64,000 nt of DNA from Spirochaetia bacterium (GTDB taxonomy: Bacteria > Spirochaetota > Spirochaetia > UBA9216): the NCBI GenBank assembly GCA_963675665.1, contig OY776510.1, positions 1,472,001 through 1,536,000 of the forward strand, in the 5' to 3' direction. Below are positions 17,189 to 20,237 of the stretch, piece by piece. How positions within the stretch are numbered: position 1 is the stretch's first letter; every line of letters begins with the position of its first letter. The translations under genes were made by a program, and so were the position numbers. The notes below the pieces were generated by a model, which saw only the letters and a program-made list of their open reading frames with translations, had not been told where the DNA came from and ran no database searches.

Positions 17189-17314
17189 GGGCGGCTGCCC
17201 TGCGTTCCGCAGTCCACCGGGCTTTACGCTGCAACGGCCCGAACCCGGCTTTTTTTCCCGGCTACCTCCGGGCCGCCGGAAAGCCGGGGCCGTTTCCGCT
17301 GCAATCCCTGCCGC
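17189..17314 (+). ncRNA. Flavo-1-like structured RNA / REP-like element
   Basis: GC-rich nested stems: GCGGC/GCCGC ends, AACGGCCC/GGGCCGTT and CCCGGCTTT/AAAGCCGGG, with blocks GGGCTTTACGCTGC and TTCCGCTGCAATCCCT that resemble Flavo-1 as I recall it. Confidence 0.55.
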
Positions 17315-17379
17315 GGGGGCTTAATAGTTAAATCGGATACCAATATGTATATTAGGTTTAACGTGTAAGGTAAAATAGC

Positions 17380-17408
17380 TTGACAAGTTGTATTGTTTGG
17401 CCGATAAT
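17380..17408 (+). promoter_or_regulatory. higBA promoter (leaderless geometry)
   Basis: TTGACA-17-GATAAT, 6 nt before the in-frame GTG at 17415. Confidence 0.65.
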
Positions 17409-17414
17409 GAATAT

Positions 17415-17723
17415 GTGGAAGCATATTTCAAAAACAAGGAATTGGAAAAGCTTTATACAACAAATAAAAGTAAGAAATACAAACTCGAACAACATGTAAT
17501 AAGTAACTTCTTTGAAGTTGTGGCTATTATCGCAGCCGCAAAGGATATCTATGATTTCAGGGAAAAACCGTCTTTGAATTTTAAAAAAATGAAAGGTTTT
17601 CAAAACAGGTACTCTTTCAGGATCGACAGAAAATACCGGCTTGAGACTGAAATTGAATGGGAGAATGAGAACAAGACGGTAGGAATTATCGGTATTGATG
17701 AAGTAAGTAATCATTACCAATGA
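17415..17723 (+). CDS. higB: HigB-like (RelE/ParE superfamily) toxin
   Basis: F.NKELEKLY, PSLNFKKMKG, YSFRIDRKYRL and C-terminal SNHY; toxin-first order with the downstream HigA. Confidence 0.85.
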   Translation: MEAYFKNKELEKLYTTNKSKKYKLEQHVISNFFEVVAIIAAAKDIYDFREKPSLNFKKMKGFQNRYSFRIDRKYRLETEIEWENENKTVGIIGIDEVSNHYQ

Positions 17724-17758
17724 TAATAAGGAGGAATGATAAAAAGTCTTCATGAGCT

Positions 17759-17911
17759 GGTGAATTGATATACTGCCTTAACTTTAATTGAGGCAGTAAG
17801 GTTACTGTTCGACATTTTTACTGGTCCGCGAGACCGTTTAGGAGATTGAAGAGCCGTAACCGAAACATTCAATGGTCTGCGAGACCGGATAGGAGAATGG
17901 AACAATTCACC
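17759..17911 (+). ncRNA. Putative IS110 bridge RNA
   Basis: Closing stem GGTGAATTG/CAATTCACC; hairpin TACTGCCTTAA/TTGAGGCAGTA; two arms each capped by GGTC-YGCGA-GACC with internal loops carrying AGGAG that match the junction sequences. Confidence 0.75.
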
Positions 17912-17946
17912 GTATAGGCACTGCTTCAAACTATTGGAGATAGAAC

Positions 17947-19059
17947 ATGAAGATGAGTATTGGCGTGGATCTTCACAAAACGCAGTTTACAGTATGCCTT
18001 TTAAGTGAAGACCGAAAAATTGATCAATTGGGAATGTATCCGACCAGCGGAAATGGTTATGGAGCATTTCTGAAAATGCTGGATGAATATTGTGAAGAGG
18101 AATATGAGTTGAGAGCAGCGGTGGAAACAACCGGGAATGCCCGTTATTTCCGCAATAAACTGTTAAAGGCTGGAGTCGAAGTGGTTGTAGTGAATACTTT
18201 GAAATTCAAGGTAGTGAATGAATCTGTAAAAAAGACAGACAAACATGATGCACGCACCCTGGCGGAGTTTCTTGAGAAAGACATGCTGCCTGAATCGATA
18301 TTATGTTCCCAAGAGAGTGAGGATATTCGAAGGGTGCTGAAATCCAGGTCGATACTGGTAAAATCTGTTGTGTCGTTAAAGAACCAGGTGCATGGCTTAT
18401 TACTTGGTTATGGAATAGAGACCAAACGCGGACAGCTGCAGAGTAAAAAAGAAAGGCAGCGAATCCTGAACGGTCTCGAGGACCACGACTTTTACGGAAG
18501 CGCTGCCAAAACGGTAATACCGTTACTGGATATGATAGATAATCAGGCATCGCAAGTCAAGCAGCTTGAAAAGGTTTTGGCTGAGCTTGTGGAGGACGAT
18601 GAAGATGTTGAGCTTCTGCAGACAATACCAGGCGTGGGTCTAATAACAGCAGCAACAGTAAGAGCCTATACAGACGATATCGGCAGATATGATAGTGCGA
18701 AGAAATATGCAGCAAACGCCGGGCTTGTGCCATGGGTGCAGAACTCAAATATGACAATACATCATGGACATATAACAAAGCGTGGGCCTGTAGAACTGAG
18801 GACAGCCTTCGTACAGATGGTGATGGGAATGGTTCGTATGCAAAAGAAGACCGGGACGTACCGAATAATGACGAAGTATGCAGCGATGAAGAAGCAGAAA
18901 GGCTCGGGTAAGAGTGTAATAGCTGCCGCCCGCAAGATGAGCACTTTGGTATATACAATTTTAAAAACCAGAGAGCCGTTTGATCCGATGAAAATGGCTT
19001 TTAGAAAAGAATACAGGGAAATGCAGGCAGCAGCATGGGAAGCTGTAATGGTCGGTTGA
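17947..19059 (+). CDS. IS110-family DEDD recombinase/transposase
   Basis: IGVDLHK (D), AVET (E), KTDKHDA (DD), TIPGVG, AGLVP..NS catalytic-Ser region, ARKM. Confidence 0.95.
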   Translation: MKMSIGVDLHKTQFTVCLLSEDRKIDQLGMYPTSGNGYGAFLKMLDEYCEEEYELRAAVETTGNARYFRNKLLKAGVEVVVVNTLKFKVVNESVKKTDKHDARTLAEFLEKDMLPESILCSQESEDIRRVLKSRSILVKSVVSLKNQVHGLLLGYGIETKRGQLQSKKERQRILNGLEDHDFYGSAAKTVIPLLDMIDNQASQVKQLEKVLAELVEDDEDVELLQTIPGVGLITAATVRAYTDDIGRYDSAKKYAANAGLVPWVQNSNMTIHHGHITKRGPVELRTAFVQMVMGMVRMQKKTGTYRIMTKYAAMKKQKGSGKSVIAAARKMSTLVYTILKTREPFDPMKMAFRKEYREMQAAAWEAVMVG

Positions 19060-19121
19060 TATCCGACTAGATCATAAGCTTATATTTTTAGCTTGTGGTT
19101 GACTTTTTATAGGAGAAAACG

Positions 19122-20237
19122 ATGGCAATGATCAGGGATTTAAAACCGGCAGTTTTGATTGGAGCCGGGGATATTATAAAAAGGGAACTTGAATATAACG
19201 GTTGGTCACAGGAAGATCTCGCAGAAATTACCGAGCTTTCAGGAAAAACAATCAGCCAGTTAATAAACAATAAACAACGGGTTACGGTTGAGACAGCAAA
19301 GCTGCTTTCTAATGCATTGGGCTCAAGTCCTGAATTCTGGCTGAATCTGGACAACAATTACAGGCTGCAGCTTGATGATGAAACCGATAAGGAATCAGCA
19401 GTAAAGACGAAGGCTGAAATTCGCAAGTATATGCCGGTTGCAGAAATCTGCAGGAAAGGCTGGTACTGCAGCGACAATACAGCTGAAGGATATAAGTCAG
19501 TATATAAAGATATCTGGAACCGGGATGATATTGATTTTTTTGTCTATGATAATCCGGATATCGAATATTGCGCGCGCAGGTCGAAAGAAGATGAGCAGTT
19601 CACGCAATACTACTCTCAGACCTGGGCGAGGATAGCAAAAAATCATGCAGAGAAAATTGATGTACCTGATTATAATCAGGCTCTGTTAAAAAAAATCTCC
19701 GAAACTCTATCCGAATACACAATTCAACCAAATGGAGTCAGGCGAATAATAAACGATTTAAATTCAGCAGGCGTCAAGGTTTTTGTTCAATCCCATCTAT
19801 CCAAAACATACCTTGACGGAGCCTGTTTCTTTGACGGAAAAAATCCGGTGATTGTTTATACCGCGCGATACGACAGGCTAGATAACTTCTGGTTTACGCT
19901 TGCTCATGAGATCGCCCATGTGCTTCTTCATTTATCTCCTGATAATGATAAATGTTTTCTGGATAATCTCGATTCTGAGAATACAACAAAAAAAGAAAAA
20001 GAGGCTGATGCAGATGCTGAAAAAATGCTGAAAATCAGGGAGATCCTGAAATTGGCAAAGCCGTACAGCAAATATCTTTCCGAAGCGAATCTTCGAAATA
20101 TTTCCGGACAACTGAAAATAGAAGTCTCGGTTATCCTGGGGGTTCTTCAACATCACGGAATAGTGGATTACAGGAAACTGAACAAGTTTAAAACAAAGGC
20201 AACACCTATCTTACCTGTGGAAATAATGATGGGATGA
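19122..20237 (+). CDS. higA: HigA antitoxin fused to ImmA/IrrE-type metallopeptidase
   Basis: XRE HTH (WSQEDLAE...FWLNL) plus RLDNFWFTLAHEIAH (HExxH) and E.EAD. Confidence 0.9.
   Translation: MAMIRDLKPAVLIGAGDIIKRELEYNGWSQEDLAEITELSGKTISQLINNKQRVTVETAKLLSNALGSSPEFWLNLDNNYRLQLDDETDKESAVKTKAEIRKYMPVAEICRKGWYCSDNTAEGYKSVYKDIWNRDDIDFFVYDNPDIEYCARRSKEDEQFTQYYSQTWARIAKNHAEKIDVPDYNQALLKKISETLSEYTIQPNGVRRIINDLNSAGVKVFVQSHLSKTYLDGACFFDGKNPVIVYTARYDRLDNFWFTLAHEIAHVLLHLSPDNDKCFLDNLDSENTTKKEKEADADAEKMLKIREILKLAKPYSKYLSEANLRNISGQLKIEVSVILGVLQHHGIVDYRKLNKFKTKATPILPVEIMMG

Follow-up and report, generated by a model that had tools for sequence, protein, structure and literature searches.

The 64,000-nucleotide stretch of Spirochaetia DNA analysed here (the window) carries at positions 17734–19115 a 1382-bp IS110-family insertion sequence, which separates the Shine-Dalgarno box of a higA-like gene from its start codon, and every other copy in the genome occupies a site of the same kind. 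We consider it likely that this is a ribosome-binding-site-homing element of the IS110 superfamily, guided by a bridge- or seek-type RNA of its own left end. Within this account, the reading of the Shine-Dalgarno half of the target by the guide is well supported, and the chances that the 5′ strand of the target loop also reads the ATG appear about even. The homing habit is common to a large group of relatives spread over several bacterial phyla.

More specifically, we propose a mechanism in which the donor loop would pair with the element's own ends, AUAGGAG with the right end and CAUUC with the GAATG of the left end, while the DEDD/Ser recombinase would exchange strands at a core inside the AGGAG shared by donor and target. 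In this way the element would insert behind the box and ahead of the start codon, and always with the orientation of the gene. A box at unchanged spacing would come from the right end, TTTTATAGGAG, while transcription from a host promoter would run on into guide RNA and transposase gene. The target-loop 5′ strand CAUUUUUA probably makes a weaker contribution, favouring A-rich spacers with an ATG at 6 nt.

The insertion sequence, its sites and its miniature derivatives

The element and its junctions are laid out in the window as follows, with the basis of each assignment in brackets:

17726–17733, + strand: left target half ATAAGGAG, the original Shine-Dalgarno box of the higA-like gene (sequence; flanks of 15 copies)
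17734–19115, + strand: the whole insertion sequence (15 copies with identical ends)
17734–17738, + strand: GAATG, the opening five bases, complementary to the arm 2 5′ strand CAUUC (end/guide combinations)
17739–17748, + strand: left subterminal inverted repeat ATAAAAAGTC (sequence; inverted copy of 19101–19110)
17947–19059, + strand: transposase gene, 370 aa, of the IS110-family RNA-guided type (PF01548, PF02371, NF033542, IS621 alignment)
19099–19104, + strand: TTGACT, a possible −35 box with putative promoter function (sequence)
19101–19110, + strand: right subterminal inverted repeat GACTTTTTAT (sequence; invariant in homologues)
19109–19115, + strand: ATAGGAG, the final bases, identical to the arm 2 3′ strand and forming the replacement Shine-Dalgarno box (copies, homologues)
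19116–19124, + strand: right target half, namely the spacer AAAACG and the ATG of the higA-like gene (sequence)

The 15 copies in the genome are 100% identical to each other, and all of them begin with GAATGATAAAAAG, finish with TTGACTTTTTATAGGAG and measure 1382 bp from GAATG to ...ATAGGAG; the element is a recently active, autonomous IS110-superfamily insertion sequence. As in the IS110 family generally, its tips are devoid of terminal inverted repeats and its insertion is site-specific. Each junction, including those of tandem elements, has a single AGGAG, with no target duplication beyond the short shared core.

The transposase gene has 213 nt of noncoding DNA upstream and 56 nt downstream of it within the element. 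Its product combines a RuvC-like DEDD_Tnp_IS110 domain (PF01548, E 9e-18) with a following Transposase_20 domain (PF02371, E 1.4e-17), and scores 216.8 bits against the NCBIfam model NF033542 ('IS110 family RNA-guided transposase'; cut-off 140). Similarity to the IS621 recombinase is weak (E 6e-15) and limited to the C-terminal half; in an alignment with the solved IS621 protein, D8, E60, D98, D101 and S267 fall on the catalytic residues D11, E60, D102, D105 and S241, if, on our reading, the IS621 residue numbers assume a chain numbering offset by 2.

The locus in the window has a HigB-like toxin gene (17388–17723) to the left and an HTH/M78-peptidase higA-like gene (19122–20237) to the right, and the sequence passes from ...ATAAGGAG through the insertion sequence to AAAACG ATG. 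The first-pass annotation had placed the insertion directly behind the AGGAG of the higA ribosome-binding site, and the context is just as it was quoted there. Ahead of the HigB-like gene, at 17380–17408, there is a strong, near-consensus sigma-70-like promoter match, TTGACA-17-GATAAT (11/12). A search for terminator-like sites across 17300–19300 found none, which, together with the higB promoter, makes read-through from a host promoter across the element plausible; one transcript may span everything from the toxin gene through guide RNA and transposase gene to the antitoxin-like gene.

The ends also suggest a promoter of the element's own. TTGAC of the right end is nearly invariant in the family, and GATAAAA of the left repeat is invariant across 25 homologues. 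In a circular form, the right-end TTGACT would lie 17 nt from the left-end TAAAAA (with TG before it), which would create a junction promoter. The left repeat with its two preceding bases, TGATAAAAA, is a possible extended −10 box. Another feature of the left junction (17733–17768) is that the host AGGAG is followed after 2 nt by the ATG of a 10-codon frame, MIKSLHELVN (stop at 17766–17768), which lies within the conserved left end of the element and has a spacing too short for good initiation.

Contigs (kind unrecorded) of four sequencing runs yielded no empty target site at this locus, just collapsed repeat contigs and one short joined form. The latter was seen in runs X1–X3, in contigs of 24 kb, 18 kb and 258 bases, in which 17726–17766 is joined to 19096 onward: a look-alike of the element's initial 33 bases (5 differences) is followed by TGTTTA and the final 20 bases. 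This joined form is a mini element of about 60 bp from a related strain or organism in the same sample. A search of 40 relatives' genomes for an empty higB–higA site found no orthologue of the higA-like gene start, with one 25-nt match at chance level (1/40).

The remaining sites follow the same pattern as the one in the window. In all 15 copies AGGAG ends the left flank, the gene has the same orientation as the element, and the next ATG opens an ORF of at least 80 codons; this ATG lies 6 nt after the element in 12 copies, 5 nt in two and 7 nt in one. The bias towards AGGAG, N5–7 and ATG at 15/15 insertions, with landing between box and start codon also at 66/76 sites of relatives, bears out the earlier proposal of an element programmed to a translation-initiation signal that leaves genes unbroken. 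Apart from AGGAG, the left flanks vary among the copies and the right end is constant, which argues that the element brings its own ATAGGAG and that the crossover falls inside the shared AGGAG; the core would be AG or any dinucleotide within AGGAG. Since the right end carries TTTTATAGGAG, the downstream gene retains a Shine-Dalgarno box with its spacing unchanged. When sites with at least two of three matches to UUU before AGGAG are considered, 14 of the 221 that precede an ATG-initiated ORF are occupied, versus 0 of the 825 that do not.

The genome also has about 20 miniature elements of 100–143 bp (30 candidates from a pattern search, 20 of them judged genuine by eye), which couple the element's first 11 bases, GAATGATAAAA, to the ending TTTTATAGGAG. 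They contain three internal hairpins, lie at xxxGGAG sites 5–9 nt ahead of start codons, and sometimes stand in tandem; in three cases a full copy of the insertion sequence begins right behind a miniature. All of the miniatures are outside the window, for example:

G000:C1 2291902–2292007, 2400711–2400820, 3764694–3764801 and 2525929–2526038, + strand: miniature elements
G000:C1 2177197–2177505, reverse-complement coordinates: a tandem trio of miniature elements

Relatives were collected by a protein-guided scan that covered one genome from each species and yielded 80 loci, in Spirochaetia, Desulfobacterota, Dehalococcoidales, Bacteroidota, a Gracilibacteria bin and Lentisphaeria. Over these loci the right end TTGACTTTTTATAGGAG is nearly invariant, and its 17 bases are also matched in at least 117 metagenome stretches. 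Among the matches listed there were 213 loci, 91 of them with a near-full RNA match, which reduce to 76 unique sites and 47 distinct guide variants; the first ATG follows AGGAG by 4–9 nt in 66 of these 76 sites and by 6 nt in 34. Relatives from a Lentisphaeria genome with 33–40% protein identity still have the end CATAGGAG followed by N5–8 and ATG, and this sharing of both end and ATG pattern by such distant relatives indicates that the habit is old and clade-wide. One further observation concerns a copy from a Spirochaeta bin (L045, about 2600–2690), in which the right end ...GACTTTTTATAGGAG is duplicated at a distance of 22 nt, as if a solo right end had remained next to a full copy.

The predicted left-end RNA and its guide strands

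The noncoding left end folds into a multibranched structure, the parts of which are:

17759–17911, + strand: core of the putative bridge-type RNA (fold, covariation)
17772–17797, + strand: 5′ hairpin ACTGCCTTAA...TTGAGGCAGT (fold)
17800–17861, + strand: arm 1, target-binding, with outer stem GGTTAC/GTAACC, inner stem, internal loop and apical hairpin (covariation)
17813–17822, + strand: target loop 5′ strand CAUUUUUACU (CATTTTTACT), complementary to the sense-strand A-rich spacer and ATG in a tentative register
17836–17845, + strand: target loop 3′ strand GUUUAGGAGA (GTTTAGGAGA; GUUUAGGAG in RNA), with three variable bases that covary with the flank
17862–17902, + strand: arm 2, donor-binding (end/guide complementarity, hairpin covariation)
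17920–17929, + strand: ACTGCTTCAA, upstream of the transposase ribosome-binding site and able to pair with the 3′ arm of the 5′ hairpin (duplex energy)

The closing stem pairs GGTGAATTG (17759–17767) with CAATTCACC (17903–17911) and encloses the 5′ hairpin and both guide arms. Arm 1 ends in the apical hairpin GGTC-CGCGA-GACC (17823–17835), and arm 2 consists of CAUUC (17866–17870), an apical hairpin (17874–17886) and AUAGGAG (17889–17895). The fold and the sequences quoted for it in the first-pass annotation are all in place, and the helices withstand comparison with shuffled sequences and with homologues. The 213-nt left end has a folding energy of −64.2 kcal/mol, whereas shuffled versions average −45.6 ± 4.2 (z −4.45), and 0 of 200 shuffles did as well.

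Conservation of the structure was assessed in an RNA alignment of this element and 24 homologues with 52–79% protein identity (25 sequences). The consensus fold retains the closing stem, both arm 1 stems and both apical hairpins; its 26 consensus pairs are paired in 96.3% of cells, and 10 of the 26 show changes on both sides. The covariation score of 0.322 was reached by 0 of 500 shuffles (0.191 ± 0.011), and sliding the partners relative to each other as a control lowers pairing to 20–45%. The arm 1 helix (87–101 with 135–149) is likewise paired at 96.3% and has three pairs changed on both sides, while the arm 2 hairpin has two such pairs in 11–12 of the 25 sequences. G-U pairs are frequent, for example U109-G124 in 24 of the 25 sequences, and on the opposite strand each of these would become A-C, so that the structure is consistent only with an RNA of the + strand. 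The left end is predicted to give rise to such a guide RNA. No family of Rfam 15 matched the region 17300–19500 at E up to 1, and the predicted RNA has the make-up of a bridge RNA, that is, a structured noncoding region with two internal guide loops that adjoins a recombinase gene.

A second helix can form between 17788–17797 and 17920–17929 (duplex −14.4 kcal/mol), and it beats shuffles (z below −2) in 22 of the 25 homologues, in which its sequences differ. This helix is incompatible with the closing stem unless the two form a pseudoknot, and it may switch the transcript between guide-RNA and mRNA forms.

The correspondence between guide and DNA is supported for three of the four guide strands. 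First, the target-loop 3′ strand reads in the same sense as the left flank, and the flank changes along with the three variable bases of that strand: 131 of 192 match, against 73.2 ± 6.1 when the guides are permuted. In this element the 3′ guide is UUUAGGAG; the Syntrophales copies have the guide CAAAGGAG and the flank AAAGGAG in 8 of 9 cases, and the Oceanispirochaeta copies have UACAGGAG and ACAGGAG in 9 of 10. Second, the donor 5′ guide occurs with the element's start in 11 distinct combinations, five of them perfect, four with one mismatch and two with two, the perfect compensated end/guide pairs being GAATG/CATTC, GCACG/CGTGC, GTATG/CATAC, GCATG/CATGC and GAGTG/CACTC. Third, the donor 3′ strand AUAGGAG equals the final seven bases of the element in all homologues. 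The covariation between loop and target that was to be expected across homologues is thus clear for the left half of the target; for the right half it is weak.

Three variants (L071, L105 and L139) have target-loop 3′ strands that read not AGGAG but UUGAGAG, CCACGGAG and CACAGAG, respectively, and 5′ strands without CAU. The left flank of L139, CACAGAG, fits its own guide, and all three look to have been naturally reprogrammed away from ribosome-binding sites.

The start codon and the competing explanations

The first-pass annotation read arm 1 as AGGAG, a 5-nt spacer and ATG, on the premise that the guide strands correspond to the DNA strands as in IS621. The AGGAG half holds up through the left-flank covariation and the ATG half in part; the spacer does not, being 6 nt in 12 of the 15 copies, and the guide order relative to the transposase gene is the reverse of that in IS621, matching the IS1111 type instead. 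Its other support, an 11-base match to the katG ribosome-binding site, is a coincidence of A-rich spacers: the stretch AGGAGTAAAAA is indeed present at 379–389, but no element occupies the site, its left side reads ACAGGAG and its spacer measures 9 nt, so that it is uninformative on targeting.

It is possible, if somewhat short of probable, that the RNA reads just the Shine-Dalgarno half of the target, in which case the ATG and the A-rich spacer would be incidental, intragenic insertions would have been purged, and the CAU of the 5′ strand would be kept for the fold. Several observations are in keeping with this explanation. The middle bases covary weakly with the DNA, and the position-by-position covariation matrix of the right side shows no clean diagonal, just one cell at z 4.0. 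Spacers range from 5 to 9 nt in other genomes, where, among the matches listed, 6 nt is not enriched (22/61 against about 29%, p 0.14). Across the loop, an invariant UG is able to pair with the CA of CAU (pairs 100–136 and 101–135), so that conservation of CAU may be structural. The predicted 5-nt register suits just 2 of the 15 sites, and occupancy bears no relation to the matches in that register.

Against this stands, first, the 6-nt spacer of this genome, found at 12 of the 15 sites as compared with 28.7% of 976 background sites (p 6e-5): insertion leaves the spacing unchanged, so that selection should be blind to it and cannot prefer a 6-nt over a 7-nt spacer. Second, CAU is kept in 43 of the 44 variants with an AGGAG guide and lost exactly in the three (3/3) whose other guide is not of the Shine-Dalgarno type (43/1/0/3; Fisher p 2.5e-4, an overstatement because the guide variants are related). 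Third, in one of those three (L105) the sequence UCUGUG fits CACAGA at +3 to +8, in the same register.

Occupancy points the same way, as it rises with matches to UAAAAAUG set one base after AGGAG, that is, in the 6-nt register: both sites that combine 7/8 right matches with a full left match are occupied (2 of 2), as are 5 of the 36 with 6/8, but none of the 520 sites that have 2/3 left matches and no more than 2/8 on the right. Within the 6-nt sites, matches at the five middle positions average 2.9 in occupied and 2.05 in free sites (p 0.013). Weighing against a reading of the ATG, composition-controlled middle-base matches, among the matches listed, lie only slightly above chance over all sites (p 0.003), and for non-homopolymer guides they number 73 of 195 against 63.4 ± 5.4 (p 0.04).

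Other pairings were tried and rejected. A 4-nt register copied from the donor loop gave no signal. A 'handshake' of the target-loop CAU with the ATG of the element's left end fails because CAU is unchanged where the left end is GCACG, and pairing of CAU with the AUG of ...GGAGAAUGAA is not general, this element and six others having AUUG or ACUG there. It also counts against the preferred account that the guide CU opposite the core is not conserved, being CU, AU or UU.

An unlikely explanation is that the donor loop, AUAGGAG, directs most insertions to the right ends of family members, full copies and miniatures alike, in the manner of the 'half-match' recombination of IS621, so that the association with ribosome-binding sites would arise because family right ends contain AGGAG. 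Such recombination is reported for IS621, and 9 to 10 of the 15 left flanks here are TATAGGAG, which resembles the right end and fits the donor guide better than the target guide. The presence of miniatures at the sites explains this resemblance; three copies lie directly behind a complete miniature, and the miniatures themselves form tandem arrays. Yet the remaining five flanks (TTAGGAG in four copies, TAAGGAG in the window copy) are unlike the right end, flanks in other genomes (AAAGGAG, ACAGGAG) follow the target guide and not ATAGGAG, and the miniatures themselves occupy ordinary xxxGGAG sites.

It is very improbable that there is no guide RNA at all and that a protein recognises AGGAG, the left end serving as protein-binding sites or a transposase mRNA leader: the subterminal inverted repeats would be plausible binding sites, but compensatory changes and strand-specific G-U pairs support the helices, the loop bases covary with flanks and ends, and the transposase belongs to an RNA-guided family.

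Relation to known systems and wider implications

The RNA-guided reading preferred here, with its AGGAG-matching target loop, places the element between two described groups. With IS621 (Durrant et al. 2024, PMC11208160; Hiraizumi et al. 2024, PMC11208158) it shares the recombinase domains and catalytic residues, a noncoding RNA upstream of the gene, two internal loops for the target and the joined ends with loop strands that match each DNA strand, a core common to donor and target, and a right-end −35 that faces a left-end −10, here as candidate boxes. However, the 5′ strand of each IS621 loop corresponds to the left half (by bottom-strand pairing) and the 3′ strand to the right half (PMC11208160), whereas here, relative to the transposase gene, the right half is served by the 5′ strand, as complement of the top strand, and the left half by the 3′ strand. 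The present element further differs from IS621 in its subterminal inverted repeats, its weak protein similarity and its lack of an Rfam match, and its natural target is a ribosome-binding site where that of IS621 is a REP element.

The IS1111-type seekRNA elements (ISEc11, ISKpn4, ISPa11), as described by Siddiquee et al. 2024 (PMC11187229), have the same guide order, with the top-strand complement first in the RNA. They also have subterminal inverted repeats, usually of 11–13 bp, to which the perfect 10-bp repeats here compare, and end extensions of 7 bp on the left and 3 bp on the right, lengths that would apply here too (AGGAATG and AGG), if AG is the core and is counted with the left. In contrast, their noncoding region lies downstream of the gene, an upstream position being listed for just a few of them, and here it lies upstream.

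The target itself has a precedent in IS900 of Mycobacterium avium subsp. paratuberculosis, an IS110-family element that seldom breaks genes and whose target motif is CATGNNNNNNTCTCCTT (PMC8141618); the comparison here is by target motif. Read on the opposite strand, the motif becomes AAGGAGA-N6-CATG, which amounts to a Shine-Dalgarno box, a 6–7-nt spacer and a start codon. As the motif is written, IS900 lies antisense to the targeted gene, whereas the family described here lies in sense and supplies a new box. The targeting of such a signal by an IS110-family element was therefore already known at the DNA level, in the opposite orientation. Earlier studies are said to have located IS900 insertions between ribosome-binding sites and start codons.

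In the main texts covered, no paper ties a bridge RNA or seekRNA to a ribosome-binding-site target or reads the IS900 motif from RNA loops; the main text of PMC11208160 does not contain 'Shine' or 'ribosome', nor that of PMC11187229 'IS900' or 'RBS'. The miniatures, for their part, recall the small stem-loop repeats with ribosome-binding sites upstream of genes known as Neisseria REP2 and Borrelia IR-A/IR-B; those repeats (Delihas 2011, PMC3184786) are not known as derivatives of RNA-guided insertion sequences, whereas the miniatures here share both ends of the element. In the 'sequence-structure dual match' of ISPpu10, a stem-loop just 5′ of the target accompanies insertions (bioRxiv 10.64898/2026.03.19.712850). 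A GC-rich hairpin about 11 nt before the box in 5 to 7 of the 15 left flanks here is similar but, unlike the ISPpu10 case, belongs to resident miniature elements.

These observations bear on both the evolution and the use of such elements. RNA-guided IS110 and IS1111 recombinases are under development as genome-writing tools; in nature they are known to target repeats, among them REP elements, attC sites and transposon ends. The natural programme of the element described here would be a signal that stands ahead of most genes, and the replacement ribosome-binding site solves the problem of damage that such a target poses. This offers an RNA-level explanation for the old target motif of the IS900 type and suggests a natural route to tag or trap genes at their starts. 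The hybrid layout, an upstream RNA with an IS1111-like guide order and end repeats, bears on the relationship between the subfamilies, and the miniature derivatives indicate that a single genome can have many of its 5′ leaders remodelled by such elements.

We put forward, tentatively, a broader picture: a deep, multi-phylum clade would carry a two-part guide to translation starts, AGGAG and a CAU for the ATG at a fixed distance. Together with their miniatures, these elements would be mobile 5′-leader cassettes that enter behind host promoters, are transcribed by them, equip the gene with a new ribosome-binding site, and leave behind, on dozens of genes, structured leaders that may serve host regulation.
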